Part shown: positions 1,738 through 59,225 of the stretch, one piece after another
How positions within the stretch are numbered: the stretch's first letter is position 1
How the letters are laid out: every line of letters begins with the position of its first letter
Virus record (IMG/VR): IMGVR_UViG_3300005973_000002
Direction: 5' to 3' (one strand)
DNA from: a virus
Lineage: Duplodnaviria > Caudoviricetes
DNA length: 64,000 nucleotides
Program-made: the position numbers and the translations under genes
The notes under the pieces: generated by a model
Databases searched by the model: none
What the model was told of the DNA's origin: nothing
The model's input: the letters and a program-made list of their open reading frames with translations, nothing else

Positions 1738-1812
1738 GGAAACCAGCCCGGATTTGAACCGGAGTCTCCTCATAAAAATGAGGTATTTTTCCTGTTGTAA
1801 ACTACTGGCTTC
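1738..1812 (-). tRNA. tRNA-like gene, Lys(TTT)-like, with abnormal 6-nt anticodon loop (probably pseudo)
   Basis: Acceptor GAAGCCA/TGGTTTC, T arm CCGG-TTCAAAT-CCGG, anticodon stem CCTCA/TGAGG enclosing only TTTTTA; no CCA. Confidence 0.55.
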
Positions 1813-6293: not shown

Positions 6294-9200
6294 TTAGAAT
6301 GTTGTAACTTTAGATTCGGTACCATCATTCTTAACTTCAATTATTCTATCAGCCACTTCTTTAATTTGGGTAACATGAGAAATCACCAAAATTGTTTTAA
6401 AGTATCCCCTAAGAAACGTAAGCATTTCCATGGAACTTTGAATATTTTCTTCGTCTAAAGCGCCAAAACCTTCATCAATGATGAGGATGTCGGATTTTGG
6501 AAGTGAGGAAAGATTACTCAGGGCAACTCTCAGTGCAAGGCTTGCCAAAGTTTTTTCCATTCCAGAAGCCAATTCAATAATTCTTGAACTATGTCCGTCT
6601 TCAATATAGACGTCCATTACATTTGATTTAACATCAGTTTCCAGTGATATTTTGAATTCAACAATTCCTTCAAGAATTTTATTCAACTCTTGATTGATAG
6701 CGGGAAGTTGCGACTTCAAAACCATTGCAGGAATTCCTGTCTTCGAAAAAGCCGCTACAATAGAATCGTAAATCTTAAGCTTTTTGATAAGAGATTTGGT
6801 TTCCTCTTCTTCTAAAAGAAGCCGCTTCAATGATTCTTGTTGGCCGCCAAGCTCTCTAATAATGTCGGTTTTCTTAGACTCTAAGGAATGAATAGTATCT
6901 CTTATTCTGTCGAGCGATTCTTTCTTTCGTTCAAATTCTTTACCTTCAAGAATATCAACCGTCTTTTGGAGCCTGACAAGCTCTTTCTTGGTTTTCTTGA
7001 TTTCAGCTTTGATACTGGTAATTTGAGAGCGTATGTGATTTCGGTTATTTCGGGCAGACTCTAACTTAGAAGAAAGTTCAAATTCCTCCCGATCGAGCTT
7101 TCTGTACTCCTCAATGCTTTCCTTGATCCTTTTGGCGATGTACTCCTCAAAGGTAGCTTCAGCATTAGAATACTGTTCTGAAAGCTTGTTTACGGTTTCT
7201 GCTTGTTTGGCAACCTTTTTCTTATCTCGGTGACCATCACGAATATAATGACAATCTGGAAATTGATCGCCACAAGGTACAACGTTTAATTTTTTTACAT
7301 TCTTTTTCTGGTTTTCCAAAATTGCTTTCTGCGAATTCAACTCATGCTTTAACTCATGCATGGTTGCTTTTAAAGCTTCAAAGCTTTCGAGTTCAGCGTT
7401 CAGAACATCAATGTTGTACTTACGCTTGGCAGAAGTTGTTGTTTTCAAAGCTTTGCCTGTGTCTCGAACTGTTTTTCTCGTTTTTTCCAGTTCAGTTGAC
7501 TTGGCCATGTACTTATCTTCAAGTTCCTTGATTTTCTTTTCAAGTGCATCTATTTGTGCCAAATCAACTTCGGCTGCACTCTTCTCATGATGCATTAGCC
7601 AAAGCTTGATCTCATCCTTTTGTTCTCGATGCTTGAAAATTCTCTCTGTGAGAACCTCAATACTCTTCTCAAGGTCGCTAGCTCTTTTACGAGCCTTTTT
7701 GATTTGATTCACGATAGATTCAGGCGATAGATAACTGCCCTTTGAATTTAGGCTATTGTAATCATCTTTGCAAAGCGAATAAAGTTTTTCAAAAATGTCA
7801 AGTTCGAGGAATCTTGCTAGAATCTTTTTTCTGTCTGTCGGCCCCTCTTTGATAAACTTGTCAACTGAGCCTTGCGAAGAAAGAGCCGTCAGCAAAAAAT
7901 CATTCGATGTGCCAATAAGGTTTCTGATTTGCTTGTCGGTATCGTCTCTACTGATAGAGTTCTCAGAAATTTTCTTCTCAACACCATGCTCTTCATCCCA
8001 TTCAATCCGACAGAAATTCAAAGTAGTGGTTGTTTTGTCAGGGTCATATTTTCTCTTATTCCTCTTGGGAATGACTCTTTGACTTTGACGTTCAATTATA
8101 TAATCAGTGCCACCAACACTAATTCGTACCTTTGCTTTGCAGTAGTTTTTGTTTTTGTTGATTATGTGGGCAGTTTTCATTGGGCCACGATCAGTCGTAT
8201 TGTAAAGTGCGTACATAATGGCGCCCACTATCGAAGAATTGTGAGTTGGAACATAATTTCGACCAAACAAAAAAGAGTGGTCTGGGCTATCTACCACCAA
8301 ACATTGGACTGGAATCGAAGGAACCGGTTTAATGTCAACAACATAACGTCGCTTTGTTCTGTCTGCAAAAGCATTTTTTACTGCCCTAATTCTGTTTGCT
8401 TTTCTTGAAAGTCTGAAAGGACAAATATCATTTTTATGTGGCGTAAAGGAAACTCTATATCTTTTGCTGATTGTTTTGCCATAAAGCTTAGCGTCTTCAA
8501 CTCTGATGGTTGTTTTAAATCCTAGACTGCATGCTAGTTCTTTTACCTGATGAGCAAGTTTTTCGTCACATTGGCAAAATTCCACCAACCCTGACTTGGA
8601 ACAACTGCCATCTGTGTCCATAAGACCTTGCAATAAGGAAATTCTTTCAGGTACAGAAGCAATCATATACATACTGGGAATATGCTTGTTTCCAAGCACA
8701 CCTAGACTACGGAGGCGGGGTGACAACAACTTTACCGTAAATGAACCTGGTCGTTTCTTCTCAAGGATCGTTTCACCAGATTTTTTTATGTTTTCAAGAA
8801 TTTCTTCATCGAAACAAGTAATTTCTGAACTGTGCGAATGGCCATCACCAAGCCAGCAACCTAACACGTATGGATCAAGGGGTAAAAATCGTTTTGGGTA
8901 TTGTACTGGTGAACAATTTGTAATTGACCAATGGTTTACTTTGTTTTTACCCACAGAAAAGGTTTGAGACTCAAACATTTGTTTGGTGGTAACAACTTTT
9001 TTATGTGATTTTGTAAGTTTTCTCTGTTTGGCCATTGCCTTGTGATCATTAACGATCCATTGATGATCTGCATCAGCCACCACCTTAGTTCCATCTGAAA
9101 ATACAAGTTCATAGCATTTATGCTCTGTATAAATTGGACTTTTTGCAGTAACACGACATGGCCTACCATTAGAATCAAACACAAAATCGTTCGTAGTGAT

Positions 9201-10559
9201 CGACTCAATTGTTTTCCATCCATTTATTGTTGGTATGGGCGTATTAATGTCTAGTGCTTTTCCGATTCGATTAGGACCGAATACTCCAACCACGCCTTCA
9301 AGATCGTTGAAGTTAATCCTATTTCCTTCCCCATACCTGAAAATATTATCAAACTCAAGTGACTTGATTGACCAATTGCAATTCTTCGTAAGACTGTCAG
9401 CCTCTCTGACCATTAGCTTGGACATGTAGCCTCTAATCAAATTTTCAGCCTCATCTAGTTGGTCAATATCAAAATGATAGTTTTGAGCATGTGCTCTGAT
9501 ATAGTCAAGATAAAGACGAACTACTGCATCTGGGTCTTGCCTCAATCCCTTTTTGGAGATCTTCAGCGAGTTGGATTCAACATGATCCATCTTTGAAATG
9601 ATGTCATATTTGAAAGTTACTTCGCTTGCTTTTCTAACTTCTCTTAGATCATGTACTAACTTTCTAGCTTCGATAGAAGGGATAGCAAATGAAGAAGAAA
9701 CTCTAAAACGAGCGCCTGGCAAAAAAGCTTTTTCACCCCTGCTTTCAACAACCTTCTTGATTGTTTCGTCTACGGTTCCTTCCCAATGTATGGTAACAAA
9801 CGGGCTATAATTCTCCAATTTCTTAAAAGAAACATCCCAATCGTCTCGTGTGCGGATGTCCCAAACAAGATAACCTTTAGTCTCAGTTTCACCAAAGTTT
9901 TGTTGGATAAGAGAGCCAGGATAGCCCATCCATGGCTTTTCAACACCATTCTTATCTTTGCGTTTTGCCAAATACTGCTGTTTGTGAATGTCGCCCAGAA
10001 GCGCAAAATCAAACTTAGTAAAGTCCGAAACCTCAGCTTCGCAGTTTTCCCAAGGCAATGTCCAATTATTGTCCATTACCGAGCCCGCAACAGAACCGTG
10101 ATAAAGAGCTATGTTGATTGCTCCCTCTACTGGCTTTACACTTGGCCAACCTTTTTGGTCAAAGGGTGAAAAAGCTCCGATATAAACATCTTGATCTTTA
10201 AGATCATCGACTTTGTAAACGCCCGACTTACGAAGCAGATGTGCTTTGGGATGATCAATCGATTCATGAATCGGGGTAATAATGTCCTTACGATGCAAAT
10301 TAGTAAGGTTGCCATCATGGTTGCCAAGAAGGGTATATGTCGGAGCAATGTCCGCAAGAGAGCGAAACATCCAAGCAAGTCGTTCAATAATTTCAGGAGT
10401 GATGCCCTGAGTTTTGGTATGAAAAGTATCTCCAGTGTTAACGATTAGATCAACATTGAGTTCTCTCAATTGCCTGTAAAGTTCTTCAAAAGCTTTATTA
10501 TATTCCCTATGCCTTTGAATACCTCGCCAATGTATGTCCGAGATATGAATTATGCGCAT
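6294..10559 (-). CDS. sbcD-sbcC: fused SbcD/Mre11 nuclease + SbcC/Rad50 ATPase, intein-containing
   Basis: Phosphoesterase motifs SDIH, TGD, GNHD, LYHG, GDIH; Walker A GPNRIGK/SS split by an intein; coiled coil with CGDQFPDC hook; signature ASGMEK; Walker B IIDEGFG; ISH. Confidence 0.92.
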   Translation of the reverse strand: MRIIHISDIHWRGIQRHREYNKAFEELYRQLRELNVDLIVNTGDTFHTKTQGITPEIIERLAWMFRSLADIAPTYTLLGNHDGNLTNLHRKDIITPIHESIDHPKAHLLRKSGVYKVDDLKDQDVYIGAFSPFDQKGWPSVKPVEGAINIALYHGSVAGSVMDNNWTLPWENCEAEVSDFTKFDFALLGDIHKQQYLAKRKDKNGVEKPWMGYPGSLIQQNFGETETKGYLVWDIRTRDDWDVSFKKLENYSPFVTIHWEGTVDETIKKVVESRGEKAFLPGARFRVSSSFAIPSIEARKLVHDLREVRKASEVTFKYDIISKMDHVESNSLKISKKGLRQDPDAVVRLYLDYIRAHAQNYHFDIDQLDEAENLIRGYMSKLMVREADSLTKNCNWSIKSLEFDNIFRYGEGNRINFNDLEGVVGVFGPNRIGKALDINTPIPTINGWKTIESITTNDFVFDSNGRPCRVTAKSPIYTEHKCYELVFSDGTKVVADADHQWIVNDHKAMAKQRKLTKSHKKVVTTKQMFESQTFSVGKNKVNHWSITNCSPVQYPKRFLPLDPYVLGCWLGDGHSHSSEITCFDEEILENIKKSGETILEKKRPGSFTVKLLSPRLRSLGVLGNKHIPSMYMIASVPERISLLQGLMDTDGSCSKSGLVEFCQCDEKLAHQVKELACSLGFKTTIRVEDAKLYGKTISKRYRVSFTPHKNDICPFRLSRKANRIRAVKNAFADRTKRRYVVDIKPVPSIPVQCLVVDSPDHSFLFGRNYVPTHNSSIVGAIMYALYNTTDRGPMKTAHIINKNKNYCKAKVRISVGGTDYIIERQSQRVIPKRNKRKYDPDKTTTTLNFCRIEWDEEHGVEKKISENSISRDDTDKQIRNLIGTSNDFLLTALSSQGSVDKFIKEGPTDRKKILARFLELDIFEKLYSLCKDDYNSLNSKGSYLSPESIVNQIKKARKRASDLEKSIEVLTERIFKHREQKDEIKLWLMHHEKSAAEVDLAQIDALEKKIKELEDKYMAKSTELEKTRKTVRDTGKALKTTTSAKRKYNIDVLNAELESFEALKATMHELKHELNSQKAILENQKKNVKKLNVVPCGDQFPDCHYIRDGHRDKKKVAKQAETVNKLSEQYSNAEATFEEYIAKRIKESIEEYRKLDREEFELSSKLESARNNRNHIRSQITSIKAEIKKTKKELVRLQKTVDILEGKEFERKKESLDRIRDTIHSLESKKTDIIRELGGQQESLKRLLLEEEETKSLIKKLKIYDSIVAAFSKTGIPAMVLKSQLPAINQELNKILEGIVEFKISLETDVKSNVMDVYIEDGHSSRIIELASGMEKTLASLALRVALSNLSSLPKSDILIIDEGFGALDEENIQSSMEMLTFLRGYFKTILVISHVTQIKEVADRIIEVKNDGTESKVTTF
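8238..9257 (-). mobile_element. 340-aa intein with LAGLIDADG homing endonuclease, class 3-like (Ala1)
   Basis: Starts ALDINTPIPT, ends VPTHN followed by Ser; block B DHQW, block F VQCLVVD; WLGDG and LMDTDG motifs. Confidence 0.9.
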
Positions 10560-29557: not shown

Positions 29558-29625
29558 CTATAAATATGACCTAGGCTACCTTTTAAAGGTAGCCATCACC
29601 TATAAATATGACCTAGGCTACCTTT
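29543..29625. repeat. tandem duplication of a 41-bp unit (42-bp period), each unit bounded by 10-bp inverted repeats
   Basis: aaaggtagccatcacctataaatatgacctaggctaccttt at 29543-29583 and 29585-29625. Confidence 0.95.
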
Positions 29626-30719
29626 ACAAAATTTCGCTTTCCGATTTTGATGATTGTTCCAGGCTCAGGCCAAAACAGGGGGTCTAAAACCTTTTCGCCG
29701 GCGATGGTGACTCCACCTTGTCTAACAAGCTTTCGAGCCCTGTTGTTGCTTACTTCACGGACAAGTGCCACTATCTTCAGCAGAAGATCAGCCTCGATTA
29801 CTTGAATTTCATCTGGTGTTTCCTTGCGTTGGACAAGTGATTCAAAATGAACTTGTGCTTCGTCTGCCTTGTCGGAACCGTGAAATTGATTTACAATATC
29901 CCAAGCAAGCTTCTTCTTTTTTACCATAGGATGACCTGGAAGATCAATTAAATCAGTCAATAGTGAAATCCACTCATCGGTCACATCATCCGGGATAGAC
30001 ATCACCTTTCCAAACATCTCCTCTGGAGGCTCGTCCAGCCAGATGGTGTTGTTGAAGGTTTTACTCATCTTTCGTCCATCGGTGCCCCTAATGATGGGAG
30101 TCATAATGCAAACTTCGGGTGACTGTCCTTCTGATTCCTGAAGACTGCGTGCCACCTGAAAGTTGAACAACTGGTCTGTTCCACCAATTTCAACGTCAGA
30201 ATCAAGCACTACAGAATCCCAACCTTGCAGCAGGGGAACCAAAAACTCATGTAATGAAATTGGTGCGCCTGCTTCATGACGCTTGCGAAAGCCATCACGT
30301 GCAAGCATATTTGCAACCGTAAACTTGCTAGCAAGATTAGCAAGAAAGAATGGAATAGACATACCGTTGACAAAGTCACGGTTTTTATGAACCTTGAACC
30401 CAGGAAGCAATACTTTGCTTGCTTGTGCAAGCAGTTGTTCTGCGTTTTCCTCGACCTCTTCTTCCGAAAGGATAGGACGAGTTTTGTCCTGTCCACTCGG
30501 ATCACCAAGCTGGGCTGTCAGAGTTCCAAGAATGAGATCAAGATGATGTCCTTGTTCTTGGAGTTTTCTACAAACTCTTAGAGGGACAAAGTGTCCCAAA
30601 TGAAGACGATTTCTTGTTGGATCAATACCAAACTTTATTTTTAGTGACTTTACTGATTCCTTTACAAAAGATTCTGTTCGTTCAGGAAAACAGGTAAAGA
30701 CACCTCCACTGTAGATCAT
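29613..30719 (-). CDS. tyrS: tyrosyl-tRNA synthetase
   Basis: GIDPT..RLHLGH (HIGH), PLLQGWD, EIGGTDQLFN, KMSKT (KMSKS), C-terminal S4-like domain. Confidence 0.92.
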   Translation of the reverse strand: MIYSGGVFTCFPERTESFVKESVKSLKIKFGIDPTRNRLHLGHFVPLRVCRKLQEQGHHLDLILGTLTAQLGDPSGQDKTRPILSEEEVEENAEQLLAQASKVLLPGFKVHKNRDFVNGMSIPFFLANLASKFTVANMLARDGFRKRHEAGAPISLHEFLVPLLQGWDSVVLDSDVEIGGTDQLFNFQVARSLQESEGQSPEVCIMTPIIRGTDGRKMSKTFNNTIWLDEPPEEMFGKVMSIPDDVTDEWISLLTDLIDLPGHPMVKKKKLAWDIVNQFHGSDKADEAQVHFESLVQRKETPDEIQVIEADLLLKIVALVREVSNNRARKLVRQGGVTIAGEKVLDPLFWPEPGTIIKIGKRNFVKVA

Positions 30720-30753
30720 TCTTCAACATCTTTATTCTCCAAACAAAGGTTAG

Positions 30754-30826
30754 CATCCCCGGTAGGATTCGAACCTACACCCGGTCGGGTAGAAGCCGAC
30801 TGCTCTTCCAATTGAGCTTCGGGGAC
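30754..30826 (-). tRNA. tRNA-Arg (TCT)
   Basis: Full cloverleaf; GTCGG-CTTCTAC-CCGAC anticodon arm; GGTTCGAATCC; 3' CTA instead of CCA. Confidence 0.9.
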
Positions 30827-30829
30827 ATT

Positions 30830-30904
30830 TGGCAGACCCACCAGGACTCGAACCTGGAATAAGAGCTTAGGAGGCTCCTGTGATGTCCCTTTCACCATGG
30901 GTCC
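30830..30904 (-). tRNA. tRNA-Arg (CCT)
   Basis: Acceptor GGACCCA/TGGGTCT, GGAGC-CTCCTAA-GCTCT, GGTTCGAGTCC, encoded CCA. Confidence 0.9.
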
Positions 30905-57033: not shown

Positions 57034-58008
57034 TTATAACCTACAGTTTTTCTTTTTCATCAAGAAGTCAATAAGGTTTTCACCCTCTTGATTTAAGAAA
57101 TTGCGGTAATAAGCATTAGGATGAGAATTTTGCAAAGCAAGAATCGCCGCATCAATTCTTTTTGGGTGAAGCAAATTTGCCCAATAGCCTTTGATTGTAA
57201 ACAGAAACGAATTTATTTCTGGGAACGGTATAACCGTCTGTCGTTCAAAGCGAAGATAAACTTGTTGATCGTCATTCCAAGTCCATTTGTTTTCTACAAA
57301 TTTATTTGGATGCAAATTCAAAACCCTGTCAGAACGAAAAGAGATAGCACCAACCCTTTGAACTGGTGTACCCATGCGAATTATTCCATTTACCATAGCG
57401 GATGGATTTTTAATGATTGGACGTCCGTCAACCTTCGTTACACGCTCATGAATCTGAGCAAAGGATTTGCCCACAACAGTCGAAGCACTCCAGCCAGCGG
57501 GCGACATTAAATGAGCGGTAGAAACAAAATCATTCCCGTCTGAATTTACCGAGCAAATAACAAGATCTTCTGGGACTTGCATAGCCAATGCATCTAAAGC
57601 ATCAGCATAGTCGGGCTTGTTTCCAAATAAATCTTCAGCACCGATAAGTTCGTAATCTTTATCAAACTGAATAAACTCCAACTTAAACGCAACCCAAAGC
57701 TTGTTGTTGTTTTCATGCCATTTGAACAAATGAGGATAATCAGTACAAAGCCGATCAATAATGAACCTGATAATTGGTGCTCGATTTATAGCTCCCGCAA
57801 ACTGATAATAACTAGATAAATCTTCTTTATGAGATTTGTTTTTGTTATCCATGAACCAAGAGTGAAATTCATCAATTTGAAAGATGTTTCTGTGTTTTTG
57901 TGGAACTGCTGCAAGTTTTGTCATCACAGCAGAAGAAGGTGGAAGGCTCCCACCCTTTAGGGGGTAATAATCTAAAACATCAGTATCTTCCAACATAGGA
58001 ATCCTCAT
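57034..58008 (-). CDS. DUF3445 / heme-dependent oxidative N-demethylase alpha-subunit-like protein
   Basis: LAMQVPEDLVI, SPAGWS....GKSFAQIHERV, LRFERQTVIPFPE...LFTI. Confidence 0.75.
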   Translation of the reverse strand: MRIPMLEDTDVLDYYPLKGGSLPPSSAVMTKLAAVPQKHRNIFQIDEFHSWFMDNKNKSHKEDLSSYYQFAGAINRAPIIRFIIDRLCTDYPHLFKWHENNNKLWVAFKLEFIQFDKDYELIGAEDLFGNKPDYADALDALAMQVPEDLVICSVNSDGNDFVSTAHLMSPAGWSASTVVGKSFAQIHERVTKVDGRPIIKNPSAMVNGIIRMGTPVQRVGAISFRSDRVLNLHPNKFVENKWTWNDDQQVYLRFERQTVIPFPEINSFLFTIKGYWANLLHPKRIDAAILALQNSHPNAYYRNFLNQEGENLIDFLMKKKNCRL

Positions 58009-58559
58009 TTGTTCATGTTTTCCGTTTTGGTTCTAAGGCCAATGAGTTTATGTTTCACGAATTTCTTATGACTTTTCAATGCCTGAGAAAATCTTGGTTC
58101 AGCAAGCCCTGTTCCATAACTCCAGGAAAGTGTGTTGTATTTTGCATTATTCCAAACTCGATTGCCGTATGAGCCGATTTCTATGTCGTCAACTTTCCAA
58201 TCGAATCCGATTTCCGTTTCTTCTGCGGTCAAAGAAACACCTTCGCTGACAAAAAAATCCCCAGCCAAAGCCATTATTTCATCTGCTTTACAGTAAGGAT
58301 CTTCTGAATAAAGCTCCACCTTCATGAACCAAGGCTGGTGTAAATCATCCTTGGGTTGATGGTCTCTAAAACATGGAGTGACAGCTACAAGTTTTTTGCT
58401 GGTGTATTTACCATATCCACCATTTACAAATGCTAGAAATGATTGCTCAGCTGAGCCAACCAAAGTGCCCATTGAAGTTTGGAAACAGTTGTCCTGCGGA
58501 GAGTCATCTGGATACGTTATTTGAACAAATCTATCGTCAACAATCCATGGAACTTCCAC
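58005..58559 (-). CDS. minimal class II aaRS (SerRS-like) catalytic core
   Basis: LVGSAEQSF, motif 2 TPCFRD...HQPWFMKVELY, IEIGSYG, motif 3 YGTGLAEPR; no tRNA-binding arm. Confidence 0.75.
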   Translation of the reverse strand: MEVPWIVDDRFVQITYPDDSPQDNCFQTSMGTLVGSAEQSFLAFVNGGYGKYTSKKLVAVTPCFRDHQPKDDLHQPWFMKVELYSEDPYCKADEIMALAGDFFVSEGVSLTAEETEIGFDWKVDDIEIGSYGNRVWNNAKYNTLSWSYGTGLAEPRFSQALKSHKKFVKHKLIGLRTKTENMNK

Positions 58560-58613
58560 ATACCCAAACCTTTACTTTCATAAAAGGAAACGGCACGGGC
58601 AATCCTCCCCCAA

Positions 58614-58904
58614 TCAATCTTCTTCGTCCTGATCGGATGATTCATCTGCTTCCCTTTCTACTCTATTGCCATCCTTGAAAGCTTCAGCTGTACGTTCATT
58701 CATCAAACGAAGATCTTCCATGGTAATACTTGGATGGTGCTTTTCCAAATAACCTTTAATTGCTCCATAAAGATCGGAAAGTTCTGTTAGAAGCATGATT
58801 TCCACACCTTGTTCTTTGGCATCCAGTGCTTCTATCATCTCTTCTTTGATTTTAGAGAAGTCGCCGTATTTGCCACGAGGTATTTTTCTTTTATGATACC
58901 CCAT
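58614..58904 (-). CDS. MazG-like all-alpha nucleotide pyrophosphohydrolase-like protein
   Basis: SKIKEEMIEALDA...LTELSDLYGAI (EExxE...ELxD pattern). Confidence 0.6.
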   Translation of the reverse strand: MGYHKRKIPRGKYGDFSKIKEEMIEALDAKEQGVEIMLLTELSDLYGAIKGYLEKHHPSITMEDLRLMNERTAEAFKDGNRVEREADESSDQDEED

Positions 58905-59225
58905 TTATCCACCCATTTTCTCGTATTCGGACCAGTATGCCTCCTCAATCGGATCAGGAATGGCAGTTGAACCTTGCTCATATCCGTTTTCGTTGAGCCA
59001 TTTTTCTACTCTACTCCACTCGTCAAGTTTAATTAAACCATCAAATTTTCCACCACCAACCCGGTTGGTTATGAATTTAATTTTATTGTCAATCATCCAC
59101 TGGTAAAAGAGCGTGCAATCTTGATGATGTTGTTTGTTAACCTTATATGGGTCCCGCTCTGGAGAAGCTACTGTAATCCAAATATAGGCACCAGCCTCCC
59201 ACTTAACACTTTTCTTTTCACTCAT
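58905..59225 (-). CDS. hypothetical protein
   Basis: 106-aa ORF abutting both neighbours. Confidence 0.6.
   Translation of the reverse strand: MSEKKSVKWEAGAYIWITVASPERDPYKVNKQHHQDCTLFYQWMIDNKIKFITNRVGGGKFDGLIKLDEWSRVEKWLNENGYEQGSTAIPDPIEEAYWSEYEKMGG

Follow-up and report, generated by a model that had tools for sequence, protein, structure and literature searches.

A minimal seryl-tRNA synthetase-like core linked to a MazG/HisE-like protein in phage genomes

Introduction

Paralogs of aminoacyl-tRNA synthetases (aaRSs) that act independently of tRNA, such as the amino acid:[carrier protein] ligases, EpmA, AsnA and HisZ, have repeatedly been a source of new chemistry. In phages, MazG-type pyrophosphohydrolases of (deoxy)nucleoside triphosphates ((d)NTPs) are encoded beside enzymes consuming the resulting monophosphates ((d)NMPs), as in the MazZ-PurZ pair of Z-genome phages and the gp56-gp42 pair of T4, and in hydrazine synthetases of the Spb40/FzmP type a MetRS-like adenylating domain is combined with a cupin in small-molecule biosynthesis. 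Here we describe a phage gene pair that encodes a seryl-tRNA synthetase (SerRS)-like catalytic core and a small MazG-like protein. The pair was analysed in a stretch of 64,000 nucleotides, referred to below as the window, from IMG/VR record IMGVR_UViG_3300005973_000002 (Duplodnaviria; Caudoviricetes). The source is an uncultured giant phage from hypersaline-lake metagenomes, in which contigs identical to the window reach up to 461 kb. A Megablast comparison of the region with the phage collection and a tblastn search with an open reading frame (ORF) resembling Pol A both gave no match; the phage therefore lacks a close relative in culture.

Amino acid:[carrier protein] ligases (Bll0957, PDB 3mey) likewise consist of a SerRS-type core without a tRNA-binding domain and are a precedent for the use of non-tRNA acceptors. 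They are, however, about 300 amino acids (aa) long and of the methanogen type, and they use an adjacent phosphopantetheinyl carrier protein; no carrier-protein gene was detected beside the phage module in a Pfam scan of the window neighbours. Another class II aaRS paralog, HisZ, partners the nucleotide-handling enzyme HisG, and among named proteins HisE comes closest to the small phage protein. The PHROG label 'histidyl tRNA synthetase' for the core family (phrog_4806) probably stems from resemblance to this HisZ/HisE arrangement, whereas phrog_6408, which contains the small protein, is listed without a function. A histidine-pathway reading of the pair was rejected, as the core is SerRS-like by sequence and HisG is not present. 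The module also differs from MazZ-PurZ and gp56-gp42, since the partner is an aaRS-type, putatively adenylating enzyme and neither PurA-like nor thymidylate-synthase-like. Association with a cupin is shared with the hydrazine synthetases; in the phages the cupin is cysteine dioxygenase (CDO)-like and is fused to or near the module in some lineages. However, the aaRS-like domain of the hydrazine synthetases is class I, and the cupin was found at only about 10-15% of the phage loci.

Results

Linkage, fusion and distribution of the two genes

The SerRS-like core and the MazG-like protein constitute one linked, near-obligate phage module. Among 80 IMG/VR loci collected by a match to the core, 79 carried a MazG-like domain, always on the same strand; it was encoded directly upstream in 43, upstream with small ORFs between in 23, downstream in 11 and was fused to the core in two (L050 and L082). 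A search of 185,579 species genomes yielded 17 core loci, mostly on contigs of metagenome-assembled genomes, with the partner at 15 of them; owing to this low number, the family is regarded as essentially viral. A tblastn search of phage records gave 276 with the core and 269 with the small protein. The two sets span the same taxa, and in every record listed in both tables the two genes lay on the same strand at most about 600 bp apart. About 270 genomes of isolate phages contain both genes. Carriers include Escherichia phages of the phi92, phAPEC8 and rV5 types, T4-like Acinetobacter phages (Twarogvirinae), Pectobacterium and Cronobacter phages, phiCbK-like giant siphoviruses of Caulobacter and Brevundimonas, several jumbo phages and Microcystis phage Ma-LMM01.

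The gp131 protein of Ma-LMM01 is a natural single-chain fusion, in which the core was recognised with E 1.4e-42 and the MazG-like domain with 98% probability (E 8e-14). Seven further fusion clusters were observed among 248 sequences (representatives and earlier matches); a search for longer fused forms (>376 aa) found none. The whole family comprises about 1,700 clusters at 50% identity. A third universal partner was not found, no other gene family being present at more than 18 of the 80 IMG/VR loci. Prediction of a 1:1 complex, with the P0006-led alignment of the core (P0006 is an intact homolog described below) against that of the 96-aa protein of the window, returned a score of 0.00, which is no answer and bears neither way on binding.

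The original prediction, made from the window alone, had proposed an uncharacterised two-gene system, to be refuted if the fold were not class II aaRS or if the genes did not co-occur elsewhere; neither of these refuting outcomes was obtained. The class II SerRS-like fold described below, the nearly exceptionless co-occurrence and the fusions support the proposal well. Literature searches for functional work on the pair turned up annotation-level mentions only.

Fold and conserved residues of the SerRS-like core

The core has a class II aaRS fold that is closest to SerRS. An AlphaFold2 (AF2) model of the intact homolog P0006, made with an alignment of 101 homologs, had a pLDDT of 92.4. In an exhaustive VIA-align search the model matched the class II families SerRS, PylRS, HisRS, SepRS and PheRS with Z values of 14-19, and SerRS structures ranked at the top (7u2a, Z 19.3; 2dq0, 18.5; 1ser, 17.7), each with about 199 aligned residues. 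Below these came PylRS (17.3), HisRS and HisZ (about 17, with HisZ at 15-17), SepRS (16.2) and the amino acid:[carrier protein] ligase Bll0957 (16.1). Foldseek returned PylRS catalytic domains (E 1e-10, TM 0.64). The profile of the 101 homologs, when compared with PDB sequences, retrieved 13 chains at E<=1e-3, all of them SerRS (best E 3e-6); no other family fell under E 0.8, HisRS and HisZ were absent at E<=10, and the carrier protein ligases were not retrieved either. Alignment to E. coli SerRS with hhalign gave a probability of 94% (E 1e-7). The fold assignment of the original prediction was thereby confirmed.

The motifs of bacterial and archaeal SerRS could be aligned throughout. The serine loop I-P-T-A-E-V-P-L of SerRS corresponds to V-G-S-A-E-Q-S-F of the phage core, the S-A-E of which aligns to the T-A-E of the E. 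coli, A. aeolicus and P. horikoshii enzymes. In motif 2, T-P-C-F-R-S-E...H-Q-F-D-K-V-E of E. coli SerRS corresponds to T-P-C-F-R-D...H..F-M-K-V-E; a 28-residue stretch pairs with T-P-C-F-R-D-H-Q-P-D-(6-residue gap)-D-E-F-H-Q-P-W-F-M-K-V-E, the loop being six residues shorter than in E. coli SerRS. In the C-terminal half, which was aligned by eye, Y-R-E-I-S-S-C-S-N corresponds to D-I-E-I-G-S-Y-G-N and the motif-3 sequence G-S-G-L-A-V-G-R to G-T-G-L-A-E-P-R. Motif 1 appears in the family as G-F-x-Y-(I/V)-E-V-P-W, with P33 in 97% of sequences, and aligns to G-Y-S-E-N-Y-V-P-Y of E. coli.

Residues conserved in at least 90% of the family include S65, A66 and E67 (97-100%), R94 of motif 2 (99%), E111, E156, S159, T179 and R185; F107, K109 and E111 reach 100%, and G178-T179-G180...R185 90-100%. 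In the SerRS-adenylate structures of T. thermophilus, the serine hydroxyl is presumably contacted by the K-V-E glutamate and the motif-3 Thr/Ser, and Mg-ATP by the E-x-x-S strand; conservation of every one of these in the phage family is 100%. T-x-E is the serine-binding motif of SerRS (bioRxiv 10.1101/586255). Because the catalytic and serine-binding residues are near-invariant, adenylation of serine by the core is likely.

The core departs from SerRS in other respects. SerRS comprises about 430 aa with a coiled-coil tRNA arm, whereas the full-length phage core has about 210 aa; an arm was not found, as the homologs start only about 10 residues ahead of motif 1, in agreement with the original prediction. 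The score against the serS equivalog model TIGR00414 was 14.5 bits, far below the cut-off of 301.65, and a search of phage CR8 with the serS model gave no match. The acidic residue following the motif-2 arginine also differs (F-R-D versus F-R-x-E), and SerRS has no counterpart to the pairing or fusion with a MazG-like protein.

The MazG/HisE-like small protein

The small protein ranges from 80 to 96 aa, and 87 homologs share the pattern M-G-Y-H-K..I..G..G-E-F-S-K-I-K-E-E-x-x-E-x-x-D ... E-L-S-D-L. Invariant positions are Y3, H4, G11, K18, E21, E22, E25, D28, E41, D44, T72 and G79. The acidic metal-binding signature E-E-x-x-E ... E-x-x-D, noted in the original prediction as EExxE/ELxD, is therefore complete in all homologs; in the AF2 model of the 96-aa protein, which forms three helices (pLDDT 88), it occupies helices 1 and 2. 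Pfam recognised PRA-PH (HisE) in 59 of the 87 homologs (best E 2.3e-5) and MazG in nine. The top Foldseek rows were HisE (2a7w, 1yvw) and E. coli MazG, all weak (E 0.2-1), and VIA-align gave Z values of 6.4 or less, which do not discriminate for a helical hairpin. Because of the weak Foldseek values, the assignment as a putative MazG/HisE-type pyrophosphohydrolase holds at the superfamily level only.

A MazG-like domain with a C-terminal extension of 120-150 aa and of no recognisable family was observed at L009 3995-4618 (orf118 of Acinetobacter phage AM101) and at L094 5330-6013. A possible 'RF-1 domain' in the extension of L094 was dropped, since the match was weak and no G-G-Q motif was seen.

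A single-base deletion in the window copy of the SerRS-like gene

In the window, the 184-aa SerRS-like ORF and the 96-aa ORF upstream of it are on the minus strand and 54 nt apart; the ORF list and the matches to phrog_4806 and phrog_6408 agree with the original prediction on both genes (Table 1). The PHROG match of the 184-aa ORF begins at profile position 25, the first 24 positions being absent, so this ORF lacks the N-terminus of the family. Intact homologs (P0006, P0007 and CcrPW gp446) show ...I-D-W-x-R-I-A-R-A-V-x-F-Y-x-S-K-G-F-x-Y-V-E-V-P-W... in a single frame; P0006 has 214 aa and is 78% identical. The corresponding helix of the window, I-D-W-G-R-I-A-R-A-V-S-F-Y-E-S-K-G, was found in a separate 42-aa ORF, which holds the first 27 residues and retains the conserved A18, Y22 and G26. 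DNA alignment with loci L007, L008, L012 and L013 revealed a single-base deletion in A-A-A-G-G-[ ]-T-T-T-G-G-G. The original prediction had noted no clear motif 1; motif 1 is in fact present in the family, and it seems to be missing from the 184-aa ORF because the 1-nt deletion splits the gene across two frames.

The deletion allele was identical in four JGI metagenome contigs and in four independently assembled runs at 12-59x coverage, which indicates that the deletion is real and no assembly error; the run-level check used assembled contigs, so that rare variants lie below its resolution. The remaining T TTG GGT (U UUG GGU) is a formal X XXY YYZ -1 slippery heptamer, and a -1 slip there would yield K-G-L-G-Y-V-E, the register of the family. 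The RNA downstream of the site showed no significant structure (z -1.7), and programmed recoding is for this reason only a possibility. A conceptual read-through of the window copy retains all 41 positions conserved in at least 90% of the family, indicating that the lesion is recent or tolerated. An A-A-G-G stretch precedes the GTG start of the 184-aa ORF by 9 nt. Production of a full-length SerRS-like protein would depend on the -1 slip at U UUG GGU, and in its absence translation would yield only the GTG-initiated core, which lacks the motif-1 helix. The frameshifted gene could be subject to recoding, be split in two or have recently become a pseudogene.

Surroundings of the module and lineage-specific companions

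The features of the locus are listed in Table 1. A Pfam scan gave no match for either the 184-aa or the 96-aa ORF, and the 106-aa ORF had no match in Pfam, PHROG or NCBIfam, its homologs being restricted to the closest relatives. PADLOC gave no matches for five genes of the cluster. The predicted pI of about 5.2 for both the SerRS-like and the MazG-like protein is uninformative.

Table 1. Features of the module and its neighbourhood in the window
Feature	Coordinates	Strand	Evidence and remarks
DUF3445/HODM_asu-like haem-protein gene	57034..58008	-	Pfam PF11927, E 1.7e-24
SerRS-derived minimal class II aaRS core, 184-aa ORF from GTG	58005..58559	-	phrog_4806, E 7e-37; contains V-E-V-P-W (end of motif 1), S-A-E loop, motif 2, E-I-G-S strand and motif 3 (G-T-G-L-A-E-P-R)
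42-aa ORF containing the N-terminal segment of the SerRS-like gene	58517-58645	-	Alignment to N-termini of intact homologs
True N-terminal segment of the SerRS-like gene	58562..58645	-	ATG at 58645; frame differs from that of the core
Frameshift site T TTG GGT	58562..58568	-	1-nt deletion relative to all relatives (DNA alignment)
MazG/HisE-like gene, 96 aa, predicted all-alpha NTP pyrophosphohydrolase	58614..58904	-	phrog_6408, E 3e-32; N-terminal G-Y-H-K conserved, C-terminal tail acidic
106-aa ORF abutting the cupin and MazG-like genes	58905..59225	-	ORF list
CDO-like cupin gene, 136 aa	59218..59628	-	phrog_4786 'cysteine dioxygenase', E 1.8e-19

The cupin gene of the window lies two genes upstream of the MazG-like gene in the same gene string and is a recurrent, non-universal companion. 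Seven IMG/VR loci (L026, L029, L043, L045, L047, L051 and L075) encode a MazG-like domain joined in one protein to a related cupin domain (phrog_4784), and in L081 a cupin sits between the two genes of the module; the phrog_4784 and phrog_4786 cupins have the motif H-x-H...F..V-x-R-G-S in common. As a CDO/ADO-like cupin is repeatedly fused to or located beside the MazG-like domain, this suggests that some versions of the module include an oxygenase step. The ATG of the DUF3445 gene overlaps the stop codon of the SerRS-like gene (ATGA). This gene, which resembles haem-dependent N-demethylases and has no visible reductase partner, follows the module only in close relatives (L003-L008, L012, L013 and L017/18) and was not found in L014, L015 or isolate phages.

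In alphaproteobacterial phages an RNA polymerase (RNAP) alpha-CTD (HhH) domain is fused to the N-terminus of the core. In phi92 a YqeY-like protein with a GatB-type tRNA-binding domain is encoded directly downstream of the pair, an arrangement seen at no other locus, and a PTH2 gene occurs near L039. Neighbours from nucleotide metabolism were frd, td and nrd genes (MP1), dNMP kinase, ThyX and RNR genes (RXM), and OMP decarboxylase and dCMP deaminase genes (L015). On the contig of P0007 (L008 1-2650; the protein is 65% identical), a truncated MazG-like gene (60 aa) is immediately preceded by TonB, DUF179 (YqgE-like) and truncated RuvX genes; this may mark integration into a bacterial chromosome, or the assembly may be chimeric.

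Elsewhere the window encodes tRNAs, a family A polymerase and the RNA ligase Rnl1. At 29613-30904 (minus strand; Pfam tRNA-synt_1b, E 1e-52) a complete class I Trp/Tyr-type aaRS gene adjoins two tRNA-Arg genes, so the phage has a conventional synthetase as well. ARAGORN reported a tRNA with an undetermined two-base anticodon '(tt)' at 1738-1811 (minus strand), which may be unusual or intron-containing. In a 1421-aa ORF at 6294-10559 (minus strand), a single frame unites an Mre11-like phosphoesterase with a LAGLIDADG domain, which is a possible intein, and with a Rad50/SbcC Walker B region.

Discussion

A core that keeps its catalytic and serine-binding residues, has lost the tRNA arm and is tied to a pyrophosphohydrolase favours a phage-specific, two-step pathway, sometimes fused into one chain, that would activate serine and be linked to nucleotides; we give this reading an even chance. 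The core would bind ATP and L-serine, or a close analog, and form an aminoacyl-adenylate; the aminoacyl group would then be transferred, not to canonical tRNA-Ser, but most likely to a nucleotide. The pyrophosphohydrolase would act in the same pathway or complex. It may produce the NMP acceptor from an NTP, like MazZ for PurZ or gp56 for gp42, or alternatively may turn a modified NTP product into its NMP form, like HisE for phosphoribosyl-ATP (PR-ATP). The original prediction had put forward much the same chemistry, namely adenylation of serine, transfer to a non-tRNA acceptor and supply or clearance of a nucleotide by the MazG-like partner, and it is conserved residues and gene context that point to it; from these we infer both what the acceptor would be and what the pyrophosphatase would do. 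A tentative extension, which we consider rather unlikely in this specific form, is that the module makes an aminoacyl-nucleotide of a previously unknown kind. The core would then seryl-ate an NTP or NMP, as a stand-in for the 3' adenosine of tRNA, or a base amine, and the HisE-like partner would convert the modified NTP to an NMP or supply the NMP acceptor; the product might be a phage metabolite or a DNA/RNA precursor for host takeover or counter-defence, tailored by the lineage-specific cupin and haem oxygenases.

Several observations weigh against a serine-activating pathway of this kind. The acidic residue after the motif-2 arginine is mostly D and not E, we know of no modified nucleotide or DNA base in phi92, rV5-like phages, phiCbK-like phages or Ma-LMM01, and no functional study of any member of the pair was found in the literature. 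The window's own SerRS-like copy is frameshifted and may be inactive, and some gene contexts (the YqeY-like gene of phi92, the alpha-CTD fusions and PTH2 near L039) point to tRNA. The first two of these contexts leave a tRNA-linked role as a less likely alternative: the core could be a minimal tRNA-directed SerRS that charges host or phage tRNA, with RNA-binding modules, in trans or fused, as substitutes for the coiled coil, and sustains translation during infection while the MazG-like partner clears an inhibitory nucleotide, e.g. an alarmone. Conservation of the serine-recognition and catalytic residues is equally expected of such an enzyme, the alpha-CTD/HhH fusion occupies the position of the SerRS tRNA-binding arm, and the module is carried by large phages that also have tRNAs and genes for tRNA repair, as exemplified in the window by Rnl1, the class I aaRS and tRNAs. 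However, each tRNA-linked neighbour is limited to one lineage, the core falls far short of the serS equivalog cut-off, and this explanation gives no reason for the near-obligate pairing or fusion with a pyrophosphohydrolase. The lost arm, the short motif-2 loop and that pairing argue against an ordinary SerRS, and we regard a tRNA-directed role as unlikely.

A different role for the core would be that of a non-catalytic regulatory subunit, which senses serine, ATP or adenylate and switches the MazG-like enzyme in the control of dNTP/NTP pools. HisZ, a HisRS paralog that regulates HisG, is a precedent with structures that match the model well, and the tight pairing, the fusions and the frequent nucleotide-metabolism neighbourhoods would fit. 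On the other hand, not just binding but also catalytic residues are invariant or nearly so (the motif-2 and motif-3 arginines and the E/S metal strand), and the sequence profile retrieves SerRS and neither HisRS nor HisZ. Because the catalytic and serine-binding residues are retained, a purely regulatory role is improbable, more so than a tRNA-directed one, and an active adenylating enzyme is preferred over a HisZ-like sensor. The frameshift raises a separate question, that of whether the SerRS-like gene is a recent pseudogene in this phage and the module non-functional here, whatever its role elsewhere. The gene is split relative to four relatives by a deletion that is reproducible in independent assemblies, and a significant stimulatory RNA structure was not seen downstream of the site. 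The deletion is, however, the sole lesion, and both frames retain all 41 conserved positions; the break coincides with a formal slippery heptamer at which a -1 slip restores the family register, no allele other than that with the deletion was seen in at least four runs and four metagenomes, and A-A-G-G lies 9 nt before the GTG. We therefore consider a pseudogene somewhat doubtful, if a more serious possibility than the two preceding alternatives.

To our knowledge, the phage core is the smallest SerRS-type core. We rate the module as a candidate member of the theme of tRNA-independent aaRS paralogs, in a variant tied to a putative pyrophosphatase. The database names 'histidyl tRNA synthetase' and 'seryl-tRNA synthetase' have been carried into papers as a translation function (PMC8953757). 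The module occurs in tractable and therapeutically used phages, including phi92/phAPEC8-like, rV5-like and phiCbK-like phages, Acinetobacter Twarogvirinae and Ma-LMM01, and correction of these names together with definition of the product could reveal a new phage pathway for nucleotide or amino-acid conjugates.

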